Below are positions 5,788-64,000 of a stretch of 64,000 nucleotides of DNA, piece after piece. Source of the DNA: Escherichia phage vB_EcoM_G8. The notes beneath the pieces are model-generated. The model was not told where the DNA came from, ran no database searches, and worked only from the letters and a program-made list of their open reading frames with translations. Within the stretch, counting starts at the first letter, position 1; every line of letters begins with the position of its first letter. The stretch lies in the sequence record NC_054915.1, one strand, 5' to 3'. The position numbers and the translations under genes are program-made.

Positions 5788-5885
5788 TACAATTTCCTCA
5801 TTAATTAAACATTGGAGCGATGCGTTTCAGAAGAGTATCAGCACCTTTAGCGAATTTCCATTTTATTCTCCAAGTTGTTTTCTGT

Positions 5886-5927
5886 ATCAGTAGTTGATAT
5901 TGATATAGTACCATAATCAACTACTGA
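5886..5927. repeat. 13-bp perfect inverted repeat (atcagtagttgat / atcaactactgat) with 16-nt spacer containing early-promoter-like tatagtacca motif
   Basis: read directly in intergenic region 5788-5958. Confidence 0.6.
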
Positions 5928-5958
5928 TGTATATAGTTTTATGAAAAAATTTTAAACT

Positions 5959-18095: not shown

Positions 18096-18260
18096 TTACT
18101 CTTCTTTTTCTTTAGATTCCTCTTTTTTCTTTTTAGGAATCTGCTCAGGACCTTTATTTACTACAGCGCCTGATGTTGTTCCAGTAGAGATATTTTCAGG
18201 ACTACCGCCTGAATCTCCAGCGACCATATCTTCTTTGATAAATTCTTTATATGTTTTCAT
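18096..18260 (-). CDS. 61.1-like small acidic/lysine-rich protein (54 aa), not in track
   Basis: hand translation MKTYKEFIKEDMVAGDSGGSPEN...; coordinates approximate. Confidence 0.4.
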   Translation of the reverse strand: MKTYKEFIKEDMVAGDSGGSPENISTGTTSGAVVNKGPEQIPKKKKEESKEKEE

Positions 18261-18261
18261 A

Positions 18262-18888
18262 TTAACCTCTATTCATAAAAGCATTAAAAATTTGGTCATC
18301 AATAGAAACATTTACTTTAGACTGTTTTTCGGATGGTAATTCATATCCACATATTACAATTTTGTGATCAATATCAAAATACACAGAAGCAATATGATTA
18401 ATGCTGTTTTCAGTAAAGTCTAAATCAACATCAATATCTTTTTGACCAAAGCCCAAAGGATAAATAATGCGAGTAATTCGATTATCTTTAACAAAGATTC
18501 CACCGACATACTCTGTACTGCGTTTAAAGTCTACACGCCGACGAAATGAAAAATATTCAGGCTCTTTATGAGCTCGGCTCATAGGGCACAACGAATAACT
18601 AGAATAAGAGATGTCAAATCCTACGCCTTCAATATGAACTAAATTGTCATGATTAAACCAATTATAATCATATGCCAAGTCCATTAGATTGTCATATGTG
18701 AAAGGCACCGGATTAACATCATTGGTCACAAGCATATAATTAGCAACTGCTATAATTTCATTATTTTTAACGAATACAAACCGTGATTGATGCGAATGGC
18801 CTGGACCTGCGTTTTCACGATTAATGATATAACACTGGGCACCTTTATATTTGTACGTGTCTTTACACTTGTGCATTTGATAAAACAT
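18262..18888 (-). CDS. gp61.2-like protein (reported anti-DarT factor AdfA homolog in T-even phages)
   Basis: 208-aa ORF in T4 61.2 position; function assignment from literature recall only. Confidence 0.6.
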   Translation of the reverse strand: MFYQMHKCKDTYKYKGAQCYIINRENAGPGHSHQSRFVFVKNNEIIAVANYMLVTNDVNPVPFTYDNLMDLAYDYNWFNHDNLVHIEGVGFDISYSSYSLCPMSRAHKEPEYFSFRRRVDFKRSTEYVGGIFVKDNRITRIIYPLGFGQKDIDVDLDFTENSINHIASVYFDIDHKIVICGYELPSEKQSKVNVSIDDQIFNAFMNRG

Positions 18889-25147: not shown

Positions 25148-25157
25148 AATAATTTCC

Positions 25158-25406
25158 TCAAATGCAAGTAGTAATTACTCCAGTAGTGCTTATGCAGGTA
25201 TTACCTAATTGAACACCCAGCGTTCCATTAGTATTCATATGAAGATTATCATCAATTTTTGTTGATACTTTACCATTCATGTGAATAACAGTATTAGATT
25301 CAATCACATTCTGAGTATCATTTTCAATATCAATAAATGGAACAGCTGCTAATGCAACTAAACAAACTGCTAAGCATCCCATAACAATTTTCATTTTATT
25401 CTCCAA
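25158..25406 (-). CDS. small secreted protein (signal peptide); true start probably M5 MKIVMG
   Basis: 82-aa track ORF; GGAG RBS lies inside first codons; downstream of early promoter. Confidence 0.55.
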   Translation of the reverse strand: MENKMKIVMGCLAVCLVALAAVPFIDIENDTQNVIESNTVIHMNGKVSTKIDDNLHMNTNGTLGVQLGNTCISTTGVITTCI

Positions 25407-25428
25407 ATCCGTATTAGTTGATAGTTGT

Positions 25429-25458
25429 ATAGTACCATAGAAGAACAGGGATGTAAAC
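25429..25458 (-). promoter_or_regulatory. T4-type early promoter within repeated promoter cassette
   Basis: plus strand gttgatagttgtatagtaccat...gtaaac. Confidence 0.65.
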
Positions 25459-25545
25459 AGTTTTGTGAAAAATTTTTAGGGAATCCAAAGGGTCCAGAAT
25501 CATCTCTTTTTCATAAGTATAGATTTATATTACTTGTATGAAAAA

Positions 25546-25561
25546 GGGACCTGGAGGTCCC
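25546..25561 (-). terminator. intrinsic terminator downstream of gene 43 (GC stem gggacc/ggtccc followed by U5 on minus strand)
   Basis: plus strand aaaaa-gggacc-tgga-ggtccc. Confidence 0.6.
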
Positions 25562-25574
25562 TAGATTTATTCTA

Positions 25575-28271
25575 TCAGCCAAACAGGAAGTCTAACGAAG
25601 CTTTTTCTTCATAGTCCATGCCAGCCGATTCACACATACCCGCAAGCGGTTTAACAAACGATTTTTGGAACAAAGTTGAGTGGTCAATCCAAGATAGTAC
25701 ATCAGAACGAATTTCTTTTGGAAGTTCTGTACCCGACGGCCAAGCAATGCACTTGTCACCAAATGGATTTCCTTCACGTAATGGAAGAACCATTACTTTA
25801 TTTCCATCCAAAATTGGAGCTACACCCAGACCACTAACAGCTCGACGATAAGTTAGCACCCCACGAATGTGGAACGGGCATTTAAATCCTGGCCAACCTT
25901 TATCATCATATTTCGCTATATCGTTCGCAGTTTTTACTTCAGCAATAACTTTATAGTCAAGTTGACGATATTCTTTCTCGAAGTTCTTGTAATATTCTTG
26001 GACAGACTCTTCACCTTCCTGAAGAATACGACGAATACTTTCTTCGAGAGCTTCTTGCACTGCTTTTGGTGTTGAACTCTGCTGAGTTTCCATACCCATG
26101 ATTTTTAGATGCGGTTCAGCAAATCGTTTATCTTCCATATCATAAACGTTCAGAGCATAACGCTTTTTCGCTTTCCAAAATCCACCTACGCCCTTTGAAC
26201 CAAGCGGAGGGCAAGAAATAGCTTCACGGTCCATATGCATCAGATGCTCGCGGTTATTCATATAATCACATAACTCACGATATGCAACATCAATCATAGG
26301 TTCCATCTTTTTCTTACCGAACTGATTCATGAATTCAACTAAATCGTTCTGCTCTTTGAATCGGTCAAGACCAACTTTTTCAATAACTTTATCTACGCAA
26401 ACATATACCGAATCAGTATCACCTGCTGCGATGAAATCTTCACCGTTAGTTCCGCATACTTTATTCAGATATTCATTAATTTTACGAGCAATCCACTGAA
26501 TACCGACTTGACCAAAAATTGTGATAGCAGTAGCATTTCGCAAATCATAGTAACGGAAATGAATATTACCAAGAGCACCATAAAGACTGTTAATAAGAAT
26601 TTTACGGTTCAGCTGATTTGTGTTAGCAAGTGTAGCTGCTTTTTCACATTCCTCAATCAGACTATTGAGAACAGATTCAGTATAATTCGATAGTTCATTT
26701 AAGAAATCATCACTGAACTTAACATATCGTTCAACTTCTGGTTTAGTTGAACAAGACCCTGCGCCTTTCATAATAATCTTTTTAATAGCTTCGGCATTCA
26801 TTTCTTCAGCGAACATTTTCTTTTTCCAGTCTTTACGCTGGAAAAATACTTTAGCAATTTCCTTTGGAATGATACCTTCTTGATGCTTATCATACATCCA
26901 TCCATTCGGAGAACAAGAATATTCATCACTCGGTTTAGGAGCTGTTCCTGCGATATATTCATGAATTGGATGAACTTTAAACTGACCACGAATAGTTTCA
27001 GGACTAATGTTAACCTGGCGAATAATGCTCGGATACAGAGAAGTCAAGTCAAAACTCATAATGTATCGACGAGCAATTGGCTTAGGTTCAAACACAAATG
27101 CACCCGGAAAACTCTGTTTAACATGCGAACCTTGTTGAGGAATAACCTTATGTTCACCTTTCAATGAGTTAAAAATAATAGCATCCCAAGTTTTAATAGG
27201 ACTCATTACACCAGAAAAAGGCATTTTAGCATAATAAGACATACTTAAAACTAGATCGATAAACCCGCGAATTTTATCAATTGCTTGAACTGATTCTACG
27301 TCAATGATGTTATAACTAATGTATCGTTGATGATTAGTCTCACGAAGTTTATTAATAGGACCGTCGTATGGTAATTTACCTTTTTTGGTTTCATGTTGAG
27401 CAACTGATTCCAAAGAGAATGACGGCAAATTAGTAAAAGCGAATTTCTTGTACAAATCTAAATAATCAAGAATAGATACGCCATCAATAGAATAAATTTC
27501 TTTGCTACCGTACATATTTTGAATTAGTTTAGATTTTACCCGACCGATTGGAGAGAAACGTTTCATACTGCGTTCGCCCAGAATCATTTTAACACGATTC
27601 ATGATATACGGAACGTCAAACCCCTCAATATTCCAACCAGTAAAAATAGCAGGTCGTTTCTGTTCCCAGAGATTGATATATTCCATGAGCATATCACGCT
27701 CATTATCGAATGGCATATAAATTACTCGGTCAAGAATTTCTTGAGGAACTTCATCACCACCTTCACAGTCAAGCTTAGCAGCTAACTTTGCATCCCATTT
27801 TGATACTGAACCATACATTGAATTCAAAAGGTCGAAAACATAAAAACGATCGTCAATTGAATCGTAATGAGTGATAGCATCAATTTCATATTCAGCTTTC
27901 ATTGGGTCAGGAAATTTATCACCAGTAACCTCAATGTCACAGTTAGCTACACGAACAAATTTTCGGTCATAAACAATTTCTGAACCATACGTATCACTGA
28001 TATAAGCGAGTTTAAAATCGTTCATACCGAGAGCTTCGAGACCGATGTCTTCCATTCGCTTCATCCAATCTCGAGCATCTTTCATTGATGGAAATTTTTG
28101 AGGAGCGCAATTTTTACCATAAATGTCTTTGTATTTTGACTCTTCCTTACAATGCCTAAACATAGTTGGAAGATATTCTACTTCACGAGTACGTTCCTTT
28201 CCGTTTTCATCAATATAACGTTCAACAATGTTATTTCCGACTGTTTCGATAGAGATATAAAATTCTTTCAT
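25575..28271 (-). CDS. 43: DNA polymerase gp43 (family B)
   Basis: 898-aa ORF, T4 gp43 length; exonuclease and polymerase motifs (DTDS, YGG). Confidence 0.97.
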   Translation of the reverse strand: MKEFYISIETVGNNIVERYIDENGKERTREVEYLPTMFRHCKEESKYKDIYGKNCAPQKFPSMKDARDWMKRMEDIGLEALGMNDFKLAYISDTYGSEIVYDRKFVRVANCDIEVTGDKFPDPMKAEYEIDAITHYDSIDDRFYVFDLLNSMYGSVSKWDAKLAAKLDCEGGDEVPQEILDRVIYMPFDNERDMLMEYINLWEQKRPAIFTGWNIEGFDVPYIMNRVKMILGERSMKRFSPIGRVKSKLIQNMYGSKEIYSIDGVSILDYLDLYKKFAFTNLPSFSLESVAQHETKKGKLPYDGPINKLRETNHQRYISYNIIDVESVQAIDKIRGFIDLVLSMSYYAKMPFSGVMSPIKTWDAIIFNSLKGEHKVIPQQGSHVKQSFPGAFVFEPKPIARRYIMSFDLTSLYPSIIRQVNISPETIRGQFKVHPIHEYIAGTAPKPSDEYSCSPNGWMYDKHQEGIIPKEIAKVFFQRKDWKKKMFAEEMNAEAIKKIIMKGAGSCSTKPEVERYVKFSDDFLNELSNYTESVLNSLIEECEKAATLANTNQLNRKILINSLYGALGNIHFRYYDLRNATAITIFGQVGIQWIARKINEYLNKVCGTNGEDFIAAGDTDSVYVCVDKVIEKVGLDRFKEQNDLVEFMNQFGKKKMEPMIDVAYRELCDYMNNREHLMHMDREAISCPPLGSKGVGGFWKAKKRYALNVYDMEDKRFAEPHLKIMGMETQQSSTPKAVQEALEESIRRILQEGEESVQEYYKNFEKEYRQLDYKVIAEVKTANDIAKYDDKGWPGFKCPFHIRGVLTYRRAVSGLGVAPILDGNKVMVLPLREGNPFGDKCIAWPSGTELPKEIRSDVLSWIDHSTLFQKSFVKPLAGMCESAGMDYEEKASLDFLFG

Positions 28272-36263: not shown

Positions 36264-37058
36264 CTACGAATAGGCCCAAACATATCCATAAGCAATTTTG
36301 CTTTTTCCAGATATGCACTTTTTAATATTAGACATGCATCCTTTAACGGATACAGCTGCGTCTTTAATTTTAGGAAATACTCGTAATAATTTTCCAGTAG
36401 TATCATATTGAAATACTGGCACATTTCTTTTCTGAGTTATCCCACGTTTAGATTTAGACATTTTTTGTTTAGTTGCATTAGACATCCTAGAGGGCTTTCC
36501 TATGTTATCAGAATAATAATATTTCCATTGAAATCCTCCAGCGGTTTTCCTTTTCCCATCTACACATTGTTTAATTGAACTTGAACAGCTATATGACATA
36601 TCTTCTGCAGCATCTGTAATACATCTATATTTGCGAATAAAATTTCCATTTAAATCATATTGATAAATTGGTTTTCCAGCATTTCGTCTAGCGTTAGACA
36701 TGTATTTTTTATTATCATCATCTTTCCAGAACTCTTTCATGCCTTCCGATATTGAGGAAGATACGGCTGTTTTAATCCATCCATACATTTTATTATTTAG
36801 TCTTGTTCCGTCAGAACTATAACACATCATACGAATAGCTAAAGCCAATTTAGGAAGTCTATAAATTTTAAATAATAATAAATGCGCGGTAAAATGTTCT
36901 TCTGGTGTCAAAAGAACTAAATTAGTTTTATCATCTGTACCACCCATACATCTAGGAATTATATGATGAGTTTCAGTATAGTATGTTAAAAGACTTTTAT
37001 CATTGCCTCTGTTTAGTCCTTTTTCGATCAGTAAATTATATATGTTTAAATAATTCAT
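36264..37058 (-). CDS. HNH homing endonuclease with tandem NUMOD-like DNA-binding repeats
   Basis: 264-aa ORF; HNH core HHIIPRCMGGTDDKTNLVLLTPEEH; two repeats of ...QYD..G..+..+.+I.DAA... Confidence 0.8.
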   Translation of the reverse strand: MNYLNIYNLLIEKGLNRGNDKSLLTYYTETHHIIPRCMGGTDDKTNLVLLTPEEHFTAHLLLFKIYRLPKLALAIRMMCYSSDGTRLNNKMYGWIKTAVSSSISEGMKEFWKDDDNKKYMSNARRNAGKPIYQYDLNGNFIRKYRCITDAAEDMSYSCSSSIKQCVDGKRKTAGGFQWKYYYSDNIGKPSRMSNATKQKMSKSKRGITQKRNVPVFQYDTTGKLLRVFPKIKDAAVSVKGCMSNIKKCISGKSKIAYGYVWAYS

Positions 37059-40156: not shown

Positions 40157-40280
40157 AAACCATGCGTTTGTTCCATTTAATCACAGTATAATGAACATCT
40201 AGATCATCGACTGCTGTAACAATAACGATATGTCCGTTAACACGATAGTACTGGTCAATTTTAATCTCTTTATCAACCAT
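40107..40280 (-). CDS. small ORF (about 58 aa) downstream of early promoter, not in track
   Basis: hand translation MVDKEIKIDQYYRVNGHIVIV...; GAGG RBS; coordinates approximate. Confidence 0.4.
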
Positions 40281-40310
40281 ATCAATTCCTCAAAGGTAAT
40301 TCATATGTTA

Positions 40311-40340
40311 ATAATACCACGGTTTGAACTTGTTGTAAAC
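40311..40340 (-). promoter_or_regulatory. T4-type early promoter (-10 TATTAT) in repeated cassette
   Basis: plus strand ataata-18nt-gtaaac followed by conserved gtaaacaactttgtgaaaaat. Confidence 0.6.
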
Positions 40341-40421
40341 AACTTTGTGAAAAATATTTTAGGGAATGATAAGAAAGGAACGATAGCTTAGAATGGTAAT
40401 ATACAGAATGTGAGAAAGAAA

Positions 40422-43119: not shown

Positions 43120-43146
43120 CTTCATCAATGTGTTCAGTAGAGTTCG

Positions 43147-43923
43147 CTACTTCTCTACCCGTTTATATGAAACAATGTAATTTGGATAATTGTCATCTAA
43201 ACACAAATCTTTAATACGACTTGGGTGGAGTTTTAAATCTTTAGCAGCATCCACAAATGATTTATAGATATTGTCATTTATTTTAACATATTCTGGGACG
43301 GGATGAATTGTTATTTTTATATCTATAACATTTGGATGATTACTAACCTGTTCTTCAGAGCATTTAAGAAATTTTGCAGCTGATTTAAAACTTCTAAATT
43401 TATTTCCGGATTTTAAAGCTATAGAAACAGTCTTTTTAGCCGTTCTACTACCAATATTATTTTTAACATGAGCTTCACTTCTACTATTATTTTTATAATG
43501 CTCAATCAATTTCTCTCGTATCTTATCTTTATGTTTTAAAGATAAGATTTTACCTTTATGGGCATTACTAAGTTTTTGCTTATGTTCTTCTGAATCCGGA
43601 TATTTGTTAAATTTATATCCACCTATAGATTTATTAAGAATAAATTCGTTATTAAAATATTTCCTAATAAGCATTTCTTCATGTTTAAGGGCCGATTCAT
43701 AAGAATCAAAAACTTGAAGAATTATCCACTTAGCTTTATAATCTTTAAGCTTTTCTTTAACAAGCTTAGATGACGAATTGTATTCTTTCCAATTTGTATC
43801 TTTACCATATATAGTTTTGAATTTTTTAAAACCTATATAAAAAGACTTATCAGGAAATCTTACCATATAGGTAAATGCTACAGAATTGGCAAGTTTTAAG
43901 CTTTTTCTTAATTTCCATTTCAT
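43147..43923 (-). CDS. intron-encoded GIY-YIG homing endonuclease (I-TevII-like)
   Basis: 258-aa ORF inside intron; GIY-YIG-like FTYMV...FYIG N-terminus; length equals I-TevII. Confidence 0.8.
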   Translation of the reverse strand: MKWKLRKSLKLANSVAFTYMVRFPDKSFYIGFKKFKTIYGKDTNWKEYNSSSKLVKEKLKDYKAKWIILQVFDSYESALKHEEMLIRKYFNNEFILNKSIGGYKFNKYPDSEEHKQKLSNAHKGKILSLKHKDKIREKLIEHYKNNSRSEAHVKNNIGSRTAKKTVSIALKSGNKFRSFKSAAKFLKCSEEQVSNHPNVIDIKITIHPVPEYVKINDNIYKSFVDAAKDLKLHPSRIKDLCLDDNYPNYIVSYKRVEK

Positions 43924-43930
43924 CGTTTCA

Positions 43931-43955
43931 CCTCGTATTCATATTTATACGAGGA
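43931..43955 (-). promoter_or_regulatory. late promoter TATAAATA inside an 8-bp hairpin that would sequester the I-TevII RBS in read-through transcripts
   Basis: plus strand cctcgtat-tcatattta-atacgagg; tatttata at about 43942-43949. Confidence 0.65.
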
Positions 43956-44152
43956 TAAACAGCTGCATGTCACCATGCAGTTCAGACTATATCTTCAACT
44001 CTTAGAGTTGTCTGCCGTTTCGGGTCGCTTGACCCTACTCCCTTACATTCATCAGGGATAGTCGTTGGGCATTTACAGCTACTGCTGATTTAGCAACGGA
44101 TTGTCTCAGTGAGAGTTTCCCGTTTTAGGCAGATTTTACATGAGCTTGACTT

Positions 44153-44696
44153 ACGTTAACTCATAAGCTTGGAATGCATCGTATACGTCTTTTTCTGTTT
44201 TAGATTGAGCATAATTCAACGCATCAGCGATTTGCCATTTTTCTGCATCCTCAATATGTTTTGCATAGGTGCGTTTAACATAAGGAGAAAGTACTTTATC
44301 TACATTCGCAAATGTAGTTCCGCCATACTGGTGTGAAGCAACTTGTGCAGTAATTTGTGCCATAATTGCAGTAGCAACACCAATCGATTTAGGCGTTTCA
44401 ATTTGAGCATTGCCTAATTTAAATCCGTTCTCAAGCATCCCCTTTAAATCGACTAAACAGCAATTAGTAAAAGGCAATGATATACTGTAATCTAAATCAT
44501 GAAAATGAATTAATCCAACATTATGGGCATTTACAATATGACTTGGAAGAATACGACAAGCGATATGTTTAGAAACAATACCGGCCATTAAATCTCTTTT
44601 TGTTGGAAAGACGCGAGAATCTTTGTTGGCGTTTTCTGTATTTAATTCTTTATCTTTATTTGAAATAAAATTTAAAACATCTTTTTCTAAAGACAT
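44153..44696 (-). CDS. nrdD: anaerobic ribonucleotide reductase NrdD, exon 1
   Basis: 181 codons from MSLEKDVLNF... to ...AYELT before the inferred 5' splice site. Confidence 0.85.
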
Positions 44697-45508
44697 AATT
44701 CTAATTTATCCTTTTGAAATTCTTCGTCTAAATATGGGTTCCAACCCATTTTAAACCTTTTGATGAAATTATCAATTCTAAATTTCGGTAAGTTTAAATC
44801 CACAAAAATAGATGATTTACTTTTAAAATCTGGACTTAAATAATCATATAAAATTTCTGCGTATTTTAACCATAATATACAAGTACCAGATTTAATTGCT
44901 CTCGGAGTTTTCCAAGGTTTTACACCATACATCGGATTTCCACTTCCTTTATGCCTGATAGAAGATGAAATTCCAATTTTAATTTTAGCTTCCTTTGTAT
45001 GCGAAAATCCACGATGTGGATTTTCTTTCCAGTATTTTTTAGAAGCTTCTGATATTTTCTTTCTGGCTAAATTAGTATGATGCTTTCCATAAAATCCATG
45101 ATTTTTGCCTTTATTACGATTTCTTTTAATCATGGTTATTGATTGCTTTTCTCTAGTTTCTTTAGAAGGAGAAACACCGTACGTTGTAAATTGACCATCA
45201 GCATATGCTAAATTAAAATACTCTTTATTCCATATATCTTTTTCTATATTCTTTTGAAATTCAGCTTCAATGCTAGTTATTTGCTCATCTCCGACTAATT
45301 GAAAATATAATATTTCAACTTTCGGCGTTTCTTTCAACAGGGCTTTTTGAAATTCGGAAGATGACGAAGACGAATAATAAAATTTACCATTTTTATCAAT
45401 AATATTCGTTCCGTCAAAAGTGCAATTAGTTTTACTTCCAATGTAATAATATGGCGGGGTTTTAGCATTAATTCTATTAATAAATGATAGTTTATATACT
45501 ACATTCAT
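44687..45508 (-). CDS. Seg-like GIY-YIG homing endonuclease with NUMOD3-like motifs
   Basis: 273-aa ORF; VYKLSFINRINAKTPPYYYIGSKT GIY-YIG module; overlaps gene 49 start side and nrdD start. Confidence 0.75.
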   Translation of the reverse strand: MNVVYKLSFINRINAKTPPYYYIGSKTNCTFDGTNIIDKNGKFYYSSSSSSEFQKALLKETPKVEILYFQLVGDEQITSIEAEFQKNIEKDIWNKEYFNLAYADGQFTTYGVSPSKETREKQSITMIKRNRNKGKNHGFYGKHHTNLARKKISEASKKYWKENPHRGFSHTKEAKIKIGISSSIRHKGSGNPMYGVKPWKTPRAIKSGTCILWLKYAEILYDYLSPDFKSKSSIFVDLNLPKFRIDNFIKRFKMGWNPYLDEEFQKDKLELCL

Positions 45509-52233: not shown

Positions 52234-52761
52234 TTATGCGAGTACCGTCTTTAACCGTTCTTCAAATTTCCGAAGAGTATTCTGGCGTTCAGCTCTTTGC
52301 TTTTTGTAAGTTTCAATACGCTCTGAAATGAGAGTGTATCGTTCATTTACTGATTCTTTCATAAAATCAGGAATTTCACGAGAAGCTTTAATCTCGTCAA
52401 ATTTATCAATAACAGCTTGCTCTTCAGCAATTAAGTTATCATACATCAAAATATCTTTCTTGATGAACTCAATATCTTCTTGAGTTACACGAGATAATTT
52501 AGATGCTTTATCCTTTTTGTACTGTTCATTAGTATCACGAGACCAGTGTAATGTACGATTTTTATTCGTATTCTTGTAAATTTCTACAATACCAATCTCA
52601 TCAATAATAACGATCCAATTCCAACGGGATTTGTAAATTTGTCCTCCATCAACCGTGATTTCACCTCCGATTGAGATGTCATTAAAGAACTTGCTTTGCG
52701 CTTCAGATTTAAATTTACCATCATTGTAATTTACCAAGTTGAAAATATCTTTAGCGTTCAT
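52234..52761 (-). CDS. hypothetical protein
   Basis: 175-aa ORF with GGAGG RBS downstream of early promoter. Confidence 0.6.
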   Translation of the reverse strand: MNAKDIFNLVNYNDGKFKSEAQSKFFNDISIGGEITVDGGQIYKSRWNWIVIIDEIGIVEIYKNTNKNRTLHWSRDTNEQYKKDKASKLSRVTQEDIEFIKKDILMYDNLIAEEQAVIDKFDEIKASREIPDFMKESVNERYTLISERIETYKKQRAERQNTLRKFEERLKTVLA

Positions 52762-52789
52762 TTTGTGTTCCTCCGTAGTTGATAGTTGT

Positions 52790-52819
52790 ATAGTACCACA
52801 GAGGAACGGTCTTGTAAAC
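52790..52819 (-). promoter_or_regulatory. T4-type early promoter in repeated cassette
   Basis: plus strand gttgatagttgtatagtaccaca...gtaaac. Confidence 0.65.
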
Positions 52820-52821
52820 CA

Positions 52822-53136
52822 CTAAAAGAAACTTCTTTCACAATTTTTTCCACTGAACCAAGCGCTCACTGCTTTCTTAGTCTCAGGAGCAGTGTTATCC
52901 ATAAACCATTCAAAGGCAGCCTTTTTATGATTCTGGAGGGCTTCTCGGGCTTTAATCTGCTCACGGTCTATTAACACTAACATATGAGCCTTTCTTGTCA
53001 CCATGGGCTTCTTATGATTTTTTGAATACTCCCAATCATTTGTCCATCGCATCGTTGTTGCGAATTGAAGTACAGCTTCTTTAATTTTAGTTTCGTAAAT
53101 TTCACGAGCCTTTGAGTATAACATCATTACCTCCAT
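52822..53136 (-). CDS. hypothetical protein
   Basis: 104-aa ORF. Confidence 0.5.
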   Translation of the reverse strand: MEVMMLYSKAREIYETKIKEAVLQFATTMRWTNDWEYSKNHKKPMVTRKAHMLVLIDREQIKAREALQNHKKAAFEWFMDNTAPETKKAVSAWFSGKNCERSFF

Positions 53137-53226: not shown

Positions 53227-54207
53227 TTATTTCAGAAGAGTAACCGTAGCAATTTCTTCCCAATGGTTTTTGTCGGTCATAATAAAGTCAGCAAGATAAA
53301 GAGCAGTACGCAGTGAAACATTGCGTAAACGATTAACATTGACTTTCATCCATGATAATGCTTTATAAGTTTCTTCATCAGAAAGACCGCGCTTTTGCAT
53401 CATGTCGGTTGAAAGAATAACATCTTCAACCCTGACCATAATTTCTTCATTAGTGTGAACACCCAAATCCAAATAAACTGAGCGGGACACTAATGCTTGT
53501 AAATGTGGAGCAAGTTTAGTACCACGGTCTAATTCGCGGTCAATGTCAACGTTTGTGATAAAAACAATCGTTCCTTTAAATTCAAACTCACGCTCAATGC
53601 CTTTTTCTTCTAAGTAAGAAGATGCAGTGCTCCAGCAGACTTTACGGGTCTCTCCAGTGTCCAGAGCGGCTTTTAGAAGATTAAGAATGTCCATATCAGA
53701 GAAAACATCCACATCATCAATCAAAAGGACAGAATTCTCTTCACGATTATTCCAAAGCTGTTCATAAAGACCGATACCAGAGATTTTACCATTAATGCTT
53801 TTATACTCAATGTATCCATTATCATTTGCTTTATTTAAAGCTTTATCTAAAGAATATGTTTTACCAATACCTGCTGCACCAGAGATAATTAATGAACGAA
53901 TGTTTCCGTTAATAATACCATTCGTCATCATTCCCATAACATTAAATCTTTTATTAATGCGGGTTTTCATATCTTCATACGATTCTTTAACTTCTTCAAC
54001 TTTTACACCATCATATGAAATGTCTGATTTGTAAACCCAAACACCGCGACGTTTACCGTCAATTTCAACAAAAACTTTACCATCTCCTTGTGCATCTACC
54101 GGAGCATTATCTGGGAACCATTCACCTAAGAGCTCAAAAGTTCCAGAGATTTCTTTACCAAAGTAGATACCCTTATTGATAGTTACAGTTTTCATTTTAT
54201 TCTCCAA
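53227..54207 (-). CDS. P-loop (AAA-like) ATPase; true start probably M5 MKTVTIN
   Basis: 326-aa track ORF; Walker A GAAGIGKT, Walker B LLIDDVD. Confidence 0.65.
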   Translation of the reverse strand: MENKMKTVTINKGIYFGKEISGTFELLGEWFPDNAPVDAQGDGKVFVEIDGKRRGVWVYKSDISYDGVKVEEVKESYEDMKTRINKRFNVMGMMTNGIINGNIRSLIISGAAGIGKTYSLDKALNKANDNGYIEYKSINGKISGIGLYEQLWNNREENSVLLIDDVDVFSDMDILNLLKAALDTGETRKVCWSTASSYLEEKGIEREFEFKGTIVFITNVDIDRELDRGTKLAPHLQALVSRSVYLDLGVHTNEEIMVRVEDVILSTDMMQKRGLSDEETYKALSWMKVNVNRLRNVSLRTALYLADFIMTDKNHWEEIATVTLLK

Positions 54208-54229
54208 ATCCGTATCAGTTGATAGTTGT

Positions 54230-54259
54230 ATAGTACCATAAAGCTTTATGCTTGTAAAC
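54230..54259 (-). promoter_or_regulatory. T4-type early promoter in repeated cassette (about 85 percent identical over about 95 nt to the 25390-25480 copy)
   Basis: direct sequence comparison. Confidence 0.65.
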
Positions 54260-54289
54260 AGTTTTGTGAAAAATTTTTGAAATAAAAAA

Positions 54290-54307
54290 GGGAGCCCGAA
54301 GGCTCCC
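54290..54307 (-). terminator. intrinsic terminator: 7-bp C(UUCG)G stem-loop plus U-run, downstream of nucleotidyltransferase gene
   Basis: plus strand aaaaaa-gggagcc-cgaa-ggctccc. Confidence 0.6.
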
Positions 54308-54309
54308 TA

Positions 54310-55746: not shown

Positions 55747-55943
55747 GCCATGTGAGTTGCAACTTCATCACACATATTATAACGTTTCTTAAGAAGTTCT
55801 ACAAGTTCTTCACTAGTAACTTCATCCATGTCGACGAAAAAATCACCATTAATGATGACGTAGATATTTCCTTCTTGATTGAGTGCTTCAATTTTCATGA
55901 TGTTCTCCTCTTTATCCGATAGTTGTATAGTACCACAGCTCAA
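55710..55943 (-). CDS. small protein (start probably internal MKIEALNQ, downstream of promoter)
   Basis: 77-aa track ORF; promoter overlaps its first codons. Confidence 0.45.
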
Positions 55944-55956
55944 ACGGAAAGTAAAC
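55927..55956 (-). promoter_or_regulatory. T4-type early promoter in repeated cassette
   Basis: plus strand gatagttgtatagtaccaca...gtaaac. Confidence 0.6.
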
Positions 55957-55970
55957 CGGTAAAATGAAAA

Positions 55971-55988
55971 AAGTCTCCCGAAGGAGAC
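55971..55988 (-). terminator. intrinsic terminator: 7-bp C(UUCG)G stem-loop plus U6
   Basis: plus strand aaaaaa-gtctcc-cgaa-ggagac. Confidence 0.6.
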
Positions 55989-55993
55989 TAACG

Positions 55994-59820: not shown

Positions 59821-60282
59821 TCATTGAGTTTTAATTACTGCTTTAGAAGCCTTTCCTGGTAAACGACGACTGTTGATAATTGCCATCCTGCATTGAAGTG
59901 ACGGGTTTTTGAACTTCTCATTAGGCTTACAAACCGTAAATCCAAGCCAAAGATTTCCATCTGTAATTTCCAAACGCCCAGGACGATATTCAACCCCATC
60001 AATAAAATCCTCGTCAATGTCAGGACGCGGAGGCATACTCAGGAATTCATTAACTTCTAAAACATGGTCTTTTATTTTATGGAATAATTCAAAAACATAT
60101 GTCTCATCAATCTCCCGTTGAATTGCACGATCAAGAAGATGTTGAGAATATTTTAGATGAAACGATGAGACTCCTGCTGCTTTTGATGCCTCACGAATCT
60201 CATTGTTAATTTGACGAAACTCCGACTCAAAGTGACGACGAAGCTTATTTCGACGGATAAAAACTTCTGTATTGATAGTCAT
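59821..60282 (-). CDS. regB: RegB endoribonuclease
   Basis: 153-aa ORF, T4 RegB length; early promoter and GGAG RBS upstream. Confidence 0.88.
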   Translation of the reverse strand: MTINTEVFIRRNKLRRHFESEFRQINNEIREASKAAGVSSFHLKYSQHLLDRAIQREIDETYVFELFHKIKDHVLEVNEFLSMPPRPDIDEDFIDGVEYRPGRLEITDGNLWLGFTVCKPNEKFKNPSLQCRMAIINSRRLPGKASKAVIKTQ

Positions 60283-60309
60283 GTTATTCTCCTCTTAACT
60301 GATAGAAAA

Positions 60310-60339
60310 ATTATACCACAGTCAAGAGGAAAAGTAAAC
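60310..60339 (-). promoter_or_regulatory. T4-type early promoter for regB
   Basis: plus strand attataccacagtcaagaggaaaagtaaac. Confidence 0.65.
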
Positions 60340-60341
60340 AG

Positions 60342-60662
60342 TTATTCTTTAAATCTGATCAATTTATTCATAGACTTTGAAACTTCTGCACGAACCTCAT
60401 GTAAGTTTTTAAGCTGTTCAAGACGCTGTTCATAGTAAGCAATTTCATCTTCTTCGAGACAGTCCTGTGAATCTTCTTTAAGATAGCGTGCATAGTCCTG
60501 GAAAGCTTTACGGACTACTTCCTGGAAGTCATCAAGACTTTGAATTTTCTTAGGAGCGGCAGATACACGACGAGGGGCAGTATAATACTCATAACCAAAC
60601 CCTGCACTTAATTGAGCCATTAGTATTTTTCCTCTGGTTGGAACACAGCACGGCAAGCCCAC
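60342..60662 (-). CDS. hypothetical protein (vs.x series)
   Basis: 106-aa ORF. Confidence 0.5.
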
Positions 60663-60922
60663 ATACTTGCTTCTTTGAGTTTCGTTTTAGCAATAGTTAA
60701 CTGATCGAGGCTTTCGGCGTAATTCTTCGCGAGTTCATCATCTTCACAGCTATCAAATGCTTCCCAGAATTCATCGTATAAAGCGTCAAAGATAAGTCCT
60801 AAACGAACTTCAGCGTCTTTGATAGCATTCACTTTACCGATTTTCTCTTCAGTATGCGGCTTATAACCCTTAATATCTTCAATCATATTTGACTTCCTCA
60901 CCAGTACATAAATCATATTCAA
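60620..60922 (-). CDS. hypothetical protein (vs.x series)
   Basis: 100-aa ORF. Confidence 0.5.
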
Positions 60923-61100
60923 CTAAACGAATAGGTTCATGAATGCCATATCCCTGAACAGAAATTTCTGTCGTAGGATAAATTCCATCAATATCACCCA
61001 TATTCCACGCTTCGTTAAATTGCTGTTCGCCTGAATTACTAAACCATTCGGCGAAAGCATTTAGCACATCTTCAGAACCTTCAATAATTATCTTTGCCAT
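60879..61100 (-). CDS. hypothetical small acidic protein
   Basis: 73-aa ORF. Confidence 0.5.
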   Translation of the reverse strand: MAKIIIEGSEDVLNAFAEWFSNSGEQQFNEAWNMGDIDGIYPTTEISVQGYGIHEPIRLVEYDLCTGEEVKYD

Positions 61101-61462
61101 TACAAACTCTCGGTAAAGGTACGAGCGATAACGTCGCGCTGCTGTTCCGGAGTCAGAGAGTTAAAGCGAACTGCATAACCGGATACACGGATGGTCAGCT
61201 GCGGATATTTTTCCGGATGCTTAACTGCATCTTCCAGAGTTTCACGACGCAGAACGTTAACGTTCAGGTGTTGACCACCTTCAATTTTAACTGTAGGCTG
61301 TTGCTCAATTTCAATTTCACGGGCATGCAAACCATAGAAAATTTCTGGGTCTACAAAAGAGTCCTCTTTAAAGGTTTTAGAGACAATAATTCGTGCTTGA
61401 ATACCATCTTCAAAATAAATAGTACCTTTATGTGTGCCTTCAAGAATTTGATATGCTTTCAT
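61100..61462 (-). CDS. autonomous glycyl radical cofactor (GrcA/YfiD-like; T4 Y06I-type)
   Basis: 120-aa ORF; C-terminal 60 aa ...[59 protein letters not shown] matches remembered E. coli GrcA and PFL glycyl-radical domain. Confidence 0.9.
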
Positions 61463-61469
61463 ATAAACC

Positions 61470-61850
61470 TCAATTAGAAAATAAATTTATCCAAGATTGT
61501 TCTTTAATTAAAAATGGCTCAGAATCATATGCCATTAAACTCTGTGTGATTAGTCCTTTAAAAGGCCCATCAATAAATTCCATGGTAAAATATGGAATTT
61601 TATTCATTAGCCGTGCATTAGGAGCAGTACATAAAACTCTGCATCCTTTGAATACACCTTTTTGTAATTTGTATTGCTTGGGATAAAATTCGCTCAAAAT
61701 GTTATTATTTGCTAAAATTTCAAAATGATTCACCAATTTATTTTTAATAGTTTTTGGCGAAAAATAAAGATATTCGAAAAGCTGAGTGTCTGTCATCATT
61801 GCATTCCGATTACGAAAAACTGTGGACGAGTAATACCACCAATACAACAT
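61470..61850 (-). CDS. hypothetical protein
   Basis: 126-aa ORF. Confidence 0.5.
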
Positions 61851-62338
61851 TTAATATTACAGCAGCAGCAGTGTACAGTGTCAATATGGACACTATAAAT
61901 CTTATCCATATCAGGAGATTTGACAGGCTCATCAATTATATACAAAATTCGCGAAAGCGATAAACCTCTGAACTTGCTTCCTTTATTACCAATAAAACTG
62001 CGTACAGAATCAGTAAATAAACGAAAACGTATATCATCATTAGAATAACGCGAAAATTCCTTTTTAATGTTATTTGCAGAAATTTTAGCGTAAGCTGAAG
62101 TATTAGAAAGAACAATAACTGTTCCGCCATCATACAACCAATTAGCAGCAAAGTTAGTCACAGCAATTGATTTACCGGATTGACGTCCACCGTCTAGTCG
62201 AAGTGTGCAATACTGTTTAAGTAAGTCTTCAAATGGCGGGATATATTCGTTTTTACAAATTTCTTCTACTCTAGCATCAGAATGGTGTGTAAAAGCATTC
62301 ATCAGGGATAGATAAGGACCAGTTAAAAATGTTCTCAT
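61796..62338 (-). CDS. hypothetical protein with P-loop-like GGRQSGKS and C-terminal CCCC cluster
   Basis: 180-aa ORF. Confidence 0.5.
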   Translation of the reverse strand: MRTFLTGPYLSLMNAFTHHSDARVEEICKNEYIPPFEDLLKQYCTLRLDGGRQSGKSIAVTNFAANWLYDGGTVIVLSNTSAYAKISANNIKKEFSRYSNDDIRFRLFTDSVRSFIGNKGSKFRGLSLSRILYIIDEPVKSPDMDKIYSVHIDTVHCCCCNIKCCIGGITRPQFFVIGMQ

Positions 62339-62503
62339 TTCTTCTCTCTAAATTTGGGCCATTCCGTGGCGCATGAATTGTCCATTTCTGTATTTACCCA
62401 TTACCGCACTTGGGCTCGACCTTATTACAGGTTGGCGGGAATCCCTCATAGAATCATGAGGTCCAGGTTGTTCCCATTTTATTTGAATGTAAATAGGTCT
62501 GAG
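62339..62503 (-). other. GC-rich structured intergenic region (nested stem: GGGAA...CCUCAU-loop-AUGAGG...UUCCC)
   Basis: read directly; no ORF on minus strand; composition contrasts with AT-rich flanks. Confidence 0.5.
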
Positions 62504-63082
62504 TTAGGAATTACGGGCTGCATTAGCAACGGCGTAAGCGTACTGGACATTAGCGTCTTTAAACGTACCTTTAGAGGTATCTATTTCTGCCTTAAAGCCG
62601 CCTTTAGCCATAACATCGGCAAATTCTTTACGGAAAGCCATTGCATCAAGACCTTTCCATGATGATTTATGCTTGGCAAATTCAAGACCAGCGTAGTTGA
62701 CAGCCTTAGCTAATTTATTATCAATAACCCATTTACCGGCTTTAGGCACAAACTTCGGGCCTTTTTGTTTAGAGAACAGTTTTAAATTCCAGCGACGAAG
62801 GTCACTGTCGGCTTTAACAAAAGCTGCGTCTAAGTTACTAGCAACAACATCTTCAATATGGGCAAATTTAAGTCCGTCAACTTCAATATTTAGATCGTTA
62901 CGCCAGCGAAGTCCTTCCCAAGCGAAGGCTTTAAAGTCGGAAGCCTTTGTAGCTAAGTACCGTTCAATAGGAGCTGTTTTAGGGTCAAAGCCGTTTCCCG
63001 ATCGGTAGGTCCACTCATCTTTATTAATGCCTTTGGCCTTTACTATAGAAGCTTCGGCAATAAATTCTTGATAGGTTTTCAT
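62504..63082 (-). CDS. internal protein, IPIII-like, with N-terminal capsid targeting sequence
   Basis: 192-aa ORF starting MKTYQEFIAEA (CTS shared by T4 internal proteins). Confidence 0.75.
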   Translation of the reverse strand: MKTYQEFIAEASIVKAKGINKDEWTYRSGNGFDPKTAPIERYLATKASDFKAFAWEGLRWRNDLNIEVDGLKFAHIEDVVASNLDAAFVKADSDLRRWNLKLFSKQKGPKFVPKAGKWVIDNKLAKAVNYAGLEFAKHKSSWKGLDAMAFRKEFADVMAKGGFKAEIDTSKGTFKDANVQYAYAVANAARNS

Positions 63083-63143
63083 GTGTTTCCTTGTTTGTTT
63101 TGATAGAGTAATTATACCATATTAATACTTAAGCGTAAACCGT

Positions 63144-63404
63144 TTAAGCTTTACTGCCAGAAATAATTCCGAAGTTGTTAAAATCATATCCAATATCGTC
63201 AACATCTACTTTAGGACTTGCTACAACATAAGCAATTTCACTACGTTTTGCACAGGTGTTGATTTCTTTACCATCGCCACCTAAGAAAGAATACCCATTA
63301 CGTTTTAATGAGCCAAAGTCTTCCGCATCACCAATGAAAGCTTTAACTTTAAATTTAGAACCTCTGGCATCTGCTTCAACGATAAATTCTTGATACATTT
63401 TCAT
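63144..63404 (-). CDS. internal protein with capsid targeting sequence
   Basis: 86-aa ORF starting MKMYQEFIVEA. Confidence 0.7.
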   Translation of the reverse strand: MKMYQEFIVEADARGSKFKVKAFIGDAEDFGSLKRNGYSFLGGDGKEINTCAKRSEIAYVVASPKVDVDDIGYDFNNFGIISGSKA

Positions 63405-63410
63405 TTTTCC

Positions 63411-63524
63411 TTAGTAAATTGATTTACCAAAGTATTTGTACCAAGTCGGACGTTGATCAATTTTTTCATCTAAGCGTGCTTGATTTATCGCAATGGACGC
63501 TTCGGACGGGTCATAATTTCCTCC
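63411..63524 (-). pseudogene. denV: 3' remnant of denV (endonuclease V / pyrimidine dimer glycosylase), last about 37 codons only
   Basis: frame reads ...[37 protein letters not shown] matching remembered T4 EndoV C-terminus ...[38 protein letters not shown]; upstream part replaced by promoter sequence. Confidence 0.6.
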
Positions 63525-63541
63525 AAGTAGTTGATGAATGT

Positions 63542-63571
63542 ATAGTATCAAAACCCTTGGAGGAAGTAAAC
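63542..63571 (-). promoter_or_regulatory. T4-type early promoter immediately upstream of denV remnant
   Basis: plus strand atagta-18nt-gtaaac. Confidence 0.6.
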
Positions 63572-63573
63572 AA

Positions 63574-63855
63574 CTATTTTTCTGAAGCGCCTGAAATATA
63601 TTTTTCAAGACGTTGTTTCATCAGTGAGCCGTTCTTAGCGATTTCTTCCGGTTTATCGCACATACGCAACAAGGCTTCAAGCTTAACGATATCACTGGTG
63701 CGCTCAAATTTGCGAGTATCTATCTTACTAGCAAGTTCAGAAATACGTGCTAATAGACTTTCAGCTTCAACCAAAGCTGCACCTAGCTTAGTTGCAAATG
63801 TGTCAGTAGCTTCGTTAAGAATAGATTCTGATAAAAATTCACTATATGTTTTCAT
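63574..63855 (-). CDS. internal protein with capsid targeting sequence
   Basis: 93-aa ORF from [11 protein letters not shown]; ATGA overlap with stop of gene e. Confidence 0.65.
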
Positions 63856-64000
63856 ATATACGCTTTCCAAGTTCCTGTTTTAAATGTTGAGATTACGCGT
63901 TTCGCGCGATTAGGTGTCTGACGATACCATTTAGATTGGGCTAGATTTACTGCTGCTTCATCCCAGCGTTTTTGTTGGAGCATACGTAAAGAATTAGTAA
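63852..64000 (-). CDS. e: lysozyme e, C-terminal 49 codons (gene continues beyond window end)
   Basis: translation ...[47 protein letters not shown] matches remembered T4 lysozyme C-terminus. Confidence 0.85.

Follow-up and report, generated by a model that had tools for sequence, protein, structure and literature searches.

A repeated sub-family of T4-type early promoters and its probable part in gene exchange at some junctions of a Tequatrovirus early region

When a promoter sequence is repeated almost unchanged in front of unrelated phage genes, does it mark only where transcription starts, or also sites of gene gain and loss? The question arises at positions 25381-25565 of the 64,000-nt stretch of Escherichia phage vB_EcoM_G8 (NC_054915.1) analysed here, which we call the window. 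This interval separates gene 43 (DNA polymerase, 25575-28271) from a small open reading frame (ORF) preceding imm.1, and it holds a promoter-like unit that recurs at other places in the window. A sequence-only reading of the same DNA had listed five such units and linked them to modular gene shuffling. Our analysis indicates that the repeats are very probably a paralogous sub-family of T4-type early promoters, which is already-known biology in the published early-promoter/stem-loop (PeSL) arrangement, and that these cassettes serve as crossover points at some sites, not most. The window itself covers the early genes of a Tequatrovirus (T4-like phage). From rIIA to the beginning of gene e (positions 12-66657 of NC_000866), it is collinear with T4 at 92-98% identity, the collinearity being broken by about 15 insertions/deletions (indels) or replacements. 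All of its genes lie on the minus strand, where 121 ORFs make up 93% of the sequence. No record in the phage collection was identical to the window, the best matches reaching about 97% identity over 93-100% of the query, and the phage is a mosaic Tequatrovirus distinct from T4, with an extra ORF beside the cassette at 25381-25565 that T4 lacks.

The family is most easily recognized by an 18-nt core, TGGTACTATACAACTATC, which occurs exactly at four minus-strand sites that we call A (25420-25437), C (52781-52798), D (54221-54238), and E (55918-55935). Even with up to three mismatches allowed, only 0.04 matches would be expected by chance, and five or more matches were obtained in none of 100 shuffles. 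The two-part unit quoted in the sequence-only reading is complete in A (25384-25477) and in D (54185-54278); over 94 nt of the minus strand, these two show 88% identity and are alike in every part but the spacer. At the other three listed sites only half of the unit is found: C and E have the TGG/-10/initial-transcribed half in common with A and D, C also sharing part of the leader, while B has only the UP/-35 half (TTTTTCACAAAGTTGTTTAC) in common with them, its -10 being TATTAT and its leader unrelated. The contents described for the five sites were present at all of them to within about 10 nt, but as a set the list falls short, because it missed two relatives: F, with 61% identity and three mismatches in the core (core site 5896-5913), and the more distant G, which has its -35 at 63571 and carries TACTATACAnnCATCAACTAC.

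Each unit does form a complete early promoter on the minus strand, as had been claimed, with, in order, an UP region, the -35 GTTTAC, a spacer of fixed length (17 bp between the sigma-70 hexamers) that closes with TGn, the -10 TAnnnT, a leader, a Shine-Dalgarno sequence (SD), and an ATG. A, B, C, D, E, and G have GTTTAC-N18-TAnnnT with a TGG extension (TGA in G), and F has a degenerate -35, ATATAC; the -10 is TACTAT in all of them except B. The A/T-rich UP region between -40 and -60 reads AAAAATTTTTCACAAAAC in A, D, and B and is weaker in C and E, where the -35 is abutted by a terminator U-run or by coding sequence. All copies have the same orientation as the early genes. In the window there are 18 minus-strand sites of the form GTTTAC-N18-TAnnnT, equal in spacing and mostly with the TGG extension, and each is followed 25-44 nt downstream by an SD-preceded ATG. 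Pairs among A, C, D, and E have a mean identity of 0.69 over the 25 nt that follow the -10, compared with 0.34 for pairs among the other 14 early promoters of the window. The family likeness therefore exceeds the -35/-10 consensus, and on this point the check bore out the earlier proposal. Gene duplication as the source of the repeats was considered and rejected, as the similarity ends a few codons past the ATG and the downstream proteins are unrelated.

In cassette A, a UP-like A/T tract is followed by the -35 GTTTAC (25453-25458), an 18-nt spacer with TGG, the -10 TACTAT (25429-25434), the rest of the core through 25420, a GGAG Shine-Dalgarno sequence, and an ATG at 25392-25394. Cassette D, the promoter of the nrdC.10 homologue, has its -35 at 54254-54259, its -10 at 54230-54235, and its ATG at 54193-54195; its spacer contains the palindrome CATAAAGCTTTATG, and its leader is almost the same as that of A. 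The corresponding positions are 52814-52819, 52790-52795, and 52759-52761 in cassette C (52745-52838, minus strand), which precedes the nrdC.8 homologue, and 55951-55956, 55927-55932, and 55896-55898 in cassette E (55894-55964, minus strand), which precedes the mobD.5 homologue. Cassette B, the promoter of the 55.6 homologue, spans about 40278-40359 with its -10 at 40311-40316, and the decayed cassette F (5859-5953) lies upstream of the cef homologue; both are on the minus strand. Promoter G (63512-63571, minus strand) belongs to the internal-protein locus and contains TACTATACAttCATCAACTAC, and its spacer, TTCCTCCAA, is complementary to its SD sequence, TTGGAGGAA. The early promoter of regB (60270-60339, minus strand), called P-regB below, stands outside the TACTAT sub-family.

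Two copies are decayed. The SD and ATG of F open an ORF of only four codons (MEIR-stop), and a T4 copy between denB and ndd (T4 about 167086) opens one of eight codons (MKIAEIEL-stop) that resembles the start of imm.1; by their sequences, both look like relics of former duplications of a cassette together with a gene start. Likeness beyond the consensus also appears in other early-promoter sub-families. The promoters P2447 (2418-2447) and P49842 (49813-49842), both on the minus strand, have almost the same spacer, TTTRCCACAAGGATGTGG, with an internal CCACA/TGTGG hairpin, and two T4 promoters (136336 and 123093) have both spacer and leader in common.

What are the stem-loops that accompany these promoters? 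They appear to be of two kinds, predicted intrinsic terminators upstream of the promoter and predicted hairpins around the -10. The terminator that closes the nrdC.11 unit ahead of D is a C(UUCG)G hairpin with a U-run (54289-54308, minus strand; -16.2 kcal/mol, z -3.7) of the form AGGGAGCC-UUCG-GGCUCCCU, 29 nt upstream of the -35, and the one ahead of E (55972-55989, minus strand; -10.8 kcal/mol, z -3.5) is AGUCUCC-UUCG-GGAGACU with a U-run, 15 nt upstream of the -35. Farther away, 86 nt upstream of the -35 of A, lies the intrinsic terminator of gene 43, AGGGACC-UCCA-GGUCCCU with a U-run (25545-25562, minus strand; -12 kcal/mol, z -3.0), whose orthologue is labelled a rho-independent terminator in the record of phage ASO78A. 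A GGGCCC-UCU-GGGCCU hairpin is found 80 nt upstream at B. No upstream terminator hairpin was found at C, F, or G, and those three have a hairpin around the -10. The statement that the units usually stand next to a C(UUCG)G stem-loop thus does not hold, since such a hairpin is directly upstream at only two of the five listed sites, D and E; the promoter P14703 likewise has one. In a 168-kb genome, IMGVR_UViG_2974787500_000001, the cassettes on the motA side and on the nrdC.11 side both lack the U-run, UP region, and -35, and at both the terminator hairpin is fused straight onto the remnant of the spacer and the -10.

Relatives of the repeats carry promoter annotations. The early promoter of T4 motA belongs to the family, with the same core and leader, and its -35 and -10 are annotated in Z48569.1; the order there is GGGAGAGCC-GA-GGCTCTCCC, a T-run, AAAAATTTTTTCACAAAACGGTTTAC, the spacer, and then TGGTACTATACAACTATCAACTACTGATACAG...GGAG...ATG. 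In phage ASO78A, the orthologue of A carries the label of a T4-type early promoter, with a rho-independent terminator ahead of it. By homology to these two, the copies in the window would be expected to fire right after infection, with unmodified host RNA polymerase. A BLAST search with the 94-nt unit matched 551 phage records at 3966 places, typically eight per genome, and nearly all of these records are Tequatrovirus-like phages of Escherichia, Shigella, Yersinia, and Salmonella. In T4 and contigs from IMG/VR, members precede imm.1, nrdC.10, nrdC.8, mobD.5, e.8, cef, motA, and frd.3 and occupy the denB-ndd spacer, and copies A to F match, at 95-100% identity, T4 sites located at about 27.0, 41.7, 53.9, 55.4, 58.8, and 6.6 kb, respectively. 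In a T6 record (AP018814, 24507-24546), the orthologue of cassette A is labelled "attL"; a prophage-finding tool most likely caught the direct repeat between cassette copies, which would make this label an artefact.

Do these promoters also mark places where genes are exchanged? Locus A gives a clear case. The gene next to the cassette, which we call ORFx (25158-25394, minus strand), would encode 78 amino acids with a signal-peptide-like start (MKIVMGCLAV...); it is predicted to be driven by A and occupies a variable slot between A and imm.1. Of about 551 related phage records, 320 contain it, in most cases with only 80-90% identity, compared with 95-99% for its flanks. T4, PST, W143, and T6 lack it (window 25148-25380), and in T2 an unrelated ORF of 83 amino acids fills the slot; Pfam gave no family for ORFx. 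The junctions of the ORFx indel fall at ATGAAAAT of the cassette, so that the deletion fuses two start regions and the cassette would then drive imm.1 directly.

The cassette at this locus is itself a mosaic. Among 12 genomes anchored on the gene 43 terminator, we found three spacer types (ATCCC..., AAGAC/A..., and the C-type AAGACYGTTCCTCTG), two leader types, and three downstream states, combined in most of the possible ways. At locus A, T2 carries a C-type cassette in full, and RB18 joins a C-type spacer to an A-type leader, which places the crossovers in the invariant core. Similarly, the frd.3 promoter of T4 has the spacer of D, while other phages have an ATCC-type spacer at that position. 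These patterns call for exchange between paralogous copies, with crossovers in the invariant core.

Locus D shows what can be carried along. In T2 and W143, an extra ORF of 161 amino acids lies between nrdC.11 and nrdC.10, within a module of 570-590 bp that comprises a -35, its own -10, the ORF, and a second terminator, and that is bounded by direct repeats of 39-50 bp of the T-run/UP/-35 part. The module occurs in 44 records. Pfam gave no family for the ORF inserted in T2, and its "ModA-like / ADP-ribosylase" label comes from the annotations of other records only. Two phages of other genera, Citrobacter phage Moon and Salmonella phage STML-198, carry the module at about 97% identity to T2, but their flanking nrdC.11 and nrdC.10 homologues are only 67-76% identical. 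As the block of high identity runs from the -35 hexamer to the next terminator/UP region, the module appears to have passed from promoter to promoter between phage genera nearly unchanged. STML-198 (a Gelderlandvirus) also keeps a fragment of the Tequatrovirus core and leader, TATGATACTATACAACTATCAACTGATACGGATTCGGAGAATAAAAT. This fragment precedes a small ORF located right after the imported module, and it is predicted to drive it. A further crossover is seen in the T6 record, where a 3.5-kb deletion (window 60340-63857) has its crossover within TGTTTACTTT, a sequence common to the promoter after gene e and the -35 part of the regB promoter.

How far the cassettes mark breakpoints in general was assessed by chaining the window against six genomes (T4, PST, W143, F26, T2, and T6). 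Indels were found at A, D, and three other early promoters and none at B, C, or E, and the proposal of modular shuffling at the cassettes is supported at A and D, inside which indels end, and not at the other three sites. In the wider set, the junction at D is contiguous in 469 of 526 records. Several observations weigh against a larger role. Promoter junctions were broken in 5 of 9 cases and other junctions in 23 of 69, an odds ratio of 2.5 that is not significant (one-sided p=0.17); B is unbroken in all six genomes, and the junctions at C and E are contiguous in 497 of 501 and 497 of 500 records (99%). For the ORFx indel, 8 nt of microhomology at the start codons suffice, and the promoter itself is not needed. 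Phage Shinka (MZ502379) has lost 2.4 kb, comprising the mobD.5-to-nrdC.11 homologues and part of nrdC.10, between window 55925 (the -10 of E) and 53525 (inside nrdC.10), with about 12 nt of overlap; a cassette-to-cassette deletion was rejected for this phage, and because the other end lies inside a gene the event is one of illegitimate recombination. Nearly all indel breakpoints lie at gene junctions, with or without a promoter. Because most promoters are at stable junctions, a cassette alone is no marker of a recently acquired neighbour. All six genomes have the homologues of 55.6, nrdC.8, nrdC.10, and mobD.5 that follow B, C, D, and E, respectively, and the idea that the flanked ORFs are the likeliest recent acquisitions therefore applies to one of the five, ORFx, although D is nonetheless an insertion hot spot in other phages.

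Many of the window indels are instead probable homing-endonuclease genes unrelated to the cassettes. Two minus-strand ORFs of about 265-273 amino acids, at 36264-37058 and 44687-45508, have no T4 counterpart at those positions; one is HNH-like (HHIIPRCMGG...EEH), and the other has a GIY-YIG/Seg-like N-terminus (YYYIGSK). From these motifs, both are probably homing endonucleases, which would explain two of the indels. The nrdD homologue contains a group I intron (Rfam RF00028, 105 bits, 43963-44194, minus strand), and W143, T2, and T6 have no counterpart of window 43123-44161, lacking the nrdD intron. This intron was the only match in an Rfam scan of the whole window, which gave no match at the cassettes.

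Starting from the observed anatomy, copy number, mosaicism, and crossover positions, we propose that each copy would act as a compact unit of UP, GTTTAC -35, TGn, and TACTAT -10, with a short leader, a Shine-Dalgarno sequence, and a start codon behind it. With a terminator directly upstream, as predicted at D and E, or 80-86 nt upstream, as at A and B, such a copy would end one early transcription unit and open the next; we infer both activities from homology to annotated T4 promoters. The copies also supply stretches of 20-95 bp that are nearly identical in sequence, at about eight places in each genome; between or within these stretches, the phage's own homologous or short-homology recombination, the pathway that we infer, probably crosses over at times. 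Three outcomes are observed: mosaic cassettes, in which the UP/-35 part, spacer, invariant core, and leader reassort between loci; the gain, loss, or replacement of an adjacent ORF; and the occasional promoter-to-promoter transfer of a module between phages.

The spacers that vary so freely have a property of their own. In 7 of the 18 promoters in the window (G, P-regB, C, P19742, P7626, P6521, and F), the 18-nt spacer between -35 and -10 is strongly complementary to the promoter's own leader, and E is a moderate case. The duplexes of the strong cases have energies of -17 to -22 kcal/mol, compared with -7.0 +/- 3.2 kcal/mol for spacers paired with the leaders of other promoters, and the observed mean energy of own pairs was matched in none of 20,000 permutations (p<5e-5, window set). 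The hairpins formed in this way have folding z-scores of -4.5 to -6.3. For example, the spacer arm of C (52795-52807) pairs with a leader/SD arm (52767-52779) and encloses the -10 (-19.4 kcal/mol, z -5.4), F has a 13-bp inverted repeat around its -10 (-20.1 kcal/mol, z -6.3), the hairpin of G reaches -18.9 kcal/mol (z -5.5), and P-regB has the strongest hairpin between spacer and SD (-21.4 kcal/mol, z -4.5). An independent set of 13 T4 early promoters, taken from T4 66.7-72 kb and 119-169 kb, outside the region equivalent to the window, gave the same picture, with a mean of -10.8 for own pairs and -6.9 for cross pairs (p=2e-5, or 1.4e-4 when a duplicated pair is removed). Complementarity was strong in five or six of these 13, and overall in about 40% of early promoters.

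As each hairpin encloses the -10 and the predicted start, both arms would be present only in RNA that reads through from upstream, and in about half of the hairpins the SD lies within the 3' arm. Could such RNA hide its ribosome-binding site? When the promoter's own upstream sequence was compared with foreign upstream sequence, predicted SD accessibility was specifically lower at C, D, G, P-regB, P6521, P7626, and P12595, but for the whole set the drop was not significant (p=0.095). The test is suggestive for single promoters, and we do not claim a general masking of the SD. A comparison of read-through RNA with RNA from the promoter's own start gave p=5e-5, but greater length lowers accessibility in any case, and we did not rely on it. 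Among seven to ten close relatives, a covariation check turned up only a few one-sided substitutions without any compensatory pair, in a set that is uninformative for this purpose. We therefore put forward only tentatively, as something that may well turn out otherwise, that about 40% of T4-type early promoters sit inside a hairpin in which the spacer is the 5' arm and their own leader, often with the SD, is the 3' arm, so that RNA reading through from early or middle promoters farther upstream could have its ribosome-binding site hidden or processed while internally started RNA could be translated. If this is true, such immediate-early proteins would be made only during the brief firing of early promoters, and, should the complementarity prove functional, the T4 early-to-middle switch would gain a further level of regulation.

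Must the repeats have been exchanged between loci at all? Their likeness might instead reflect convergence on the RNA polymerase consensus, with no common descent or exchange. T4 early promoters do have an extended consensus of UP, -35, TGn, and -10 with further conserved positions, and the UP/-35 likeness of B and P11259 to A and D fits convergence. Such a process is harder to reconcile with an exact 18-22-mer that runs from TGn through +15, a stretch in which the other 14 promoters differ (0.34 as opposed to 0.69), or with the 25-35 nt of leader that A and D have in common with each other and also with motA, e.8, and F, and it does not predict spacer and leader types that reassort between loci across phages. 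Convergence is thus largely refuted already, and we think it very improbable. We would be similarly surprised if the cassettes were the sites of a dedicated mobile-element system, comparable to integron attC sites or miniature inverted-repeat transposable elements and moved by a site-specific recombinase. It is true that a discrete ORF module with cassette repeats at both ends has crossed genus boundaries among phages, and that Arbiol et al. detected mini-circles and suggested a possible helper protein (PMC2839356). However, the point of crossover varies by event and may lie in the -35 hexamer, in the UP tract, in the invariant core, or at the ATG; neither a target-site duplication nor an associated recombinase gene was found; and, as the PeSL papers state (PMC2839356, PMC4122927), homology shorter than 50 bp is enough for general recombination in T4.

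A different possibility is that the conserved part is mainly an RNA element, with the leader (ACAACUAUCAACU...GGAG...AUG) kept by post-transcriptional selection and recombination being incidental. Its function might be the recognition of the GGAG of the SD by RegB/S1, translational efficiency, or a start-site-dependent masking of the SD. The membership of motA, whose SD is a classical RegB site, fits this view, as do leaders that stay near-identical while spacers vary freely between copies, and a spacer-leader complementarity that, in each of two independent promoter sets, greatly exceeds the cross-pair control. Selection on the RNA leaves unexplained the UP/-35 direct repeats around the T2 module and the mosaic reassortment, and neither the overall SD accessibility, with its non-significant drop, nor the close relatives, with their lack of compensatory substitutions, speak for it. 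As the main explanation we judge it rather unlikely; it is compatible with recombination between paralogous promoter copies and does not exclude it.

The cassettes are a documented T-even feature that we have re-identified, and the value of the present case lies in new sequence-level examples of how the cassettes act. One is locus A, where spacer, leader, and downstream-gene modules reassort across 12 genomes, and another is the module that moved from promoter to promoter between genera almost unchanged. In practice, these examples can guide the annotation of transcription units and of variable "slots" in the genomes of Tequatrovirus phages, among them the ones used in phage therapy.

Several known systems resemble parts of what is described here. 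For the hairpins around the -10, the closest is the translational control of T4 e, soc, 49, and I-TevI by a late promoter within a hairpin, which is experimentally supported (review PMC3014915). There, too, the promoter lies in the hairpin and the SD in its 3' arm, and only read-through RNA folds; in contrast, the promoter here is an early one, the SD is in the arm in about half of the cases, and the geometry is predicted from sequence. These hairpins also resemble the "-10-overlapping" subclass of PeSLs in RB49/phi1. In the searchable literature, with older subscription papers outside its scope, we found no account of such hairpins at T4 early promoters. Integron cassettes and the "morons" of lambdoid phages are similar in that one ORF with its own expression signals enters a permissive intergenic slot, but here there is no integrase, attC site, or fixed crossover, and the orientation is that of the neighbouring genes.

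Repeated promoter/leader elements have been described at the T-even internal-protein loci (Repoila et al. 1994, as cited in PMC2839356). They are alike in having T4-type early promoters and common N-terminal leaders beside highly exchangeable small genes. The corresponding part of the window is 62.5-63.9 kb, where the promoters P63140 and G lie at breakpoints; A to E, unlike those elements, are outside internal-protein loci and beside unrelated genes. The internal-protein locus (62.4-63.9 kb) differed in every genome compared. A separate repeat family lies over the start and first codons of internal-protein-type genes (MKTYQEFIAEA-like leaders) at 63052-63085, 63374-63407, 63825-63858, and 18230-18263.

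The best match remains the PeSL, and the suggestion that the units are PeSL-like in architecture was sound. PeSLs were first described in RB49/phi1 and later in T4/PST, with the consensus TTTACW-N17-TAYWAT, and have been defined and tied to indels in RB49/phi1, T4/PST, and KVP40/nt-1 (PMC2839356, PMC4122927). As in the published cassettes, including those of T4/PST, an A/T-rich tract, early promoter, stem-loop, SD, and start codon are repeated in intergenic spaces of plastic early regions; the published cassettes sit at indel ends between close relatives, as A and D do here. All copies in the window fit the T4/PST consensus. An ORF between two direct cassette repeats was found at the D site of T2 and W143, not in the window, and this module is the very substrate demanded by the PeSL mini-circle model. 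The PeSLs of RB49/phi1 differ in having near-perfect sigma-70 promoters (TTGACA/TATAAT) and stems made of a G-tract and a C-tract, whereas the -35 here is GTTTAC and the stems are either upstream terminators, of the UUCG type, or spacer/leader hairpins around the -10. With the T4 early promoters themselves (Pe; P-motA and P-regB) the cassettes have the same recognition elements at the same spacing, and between the two there is no difference in kind.

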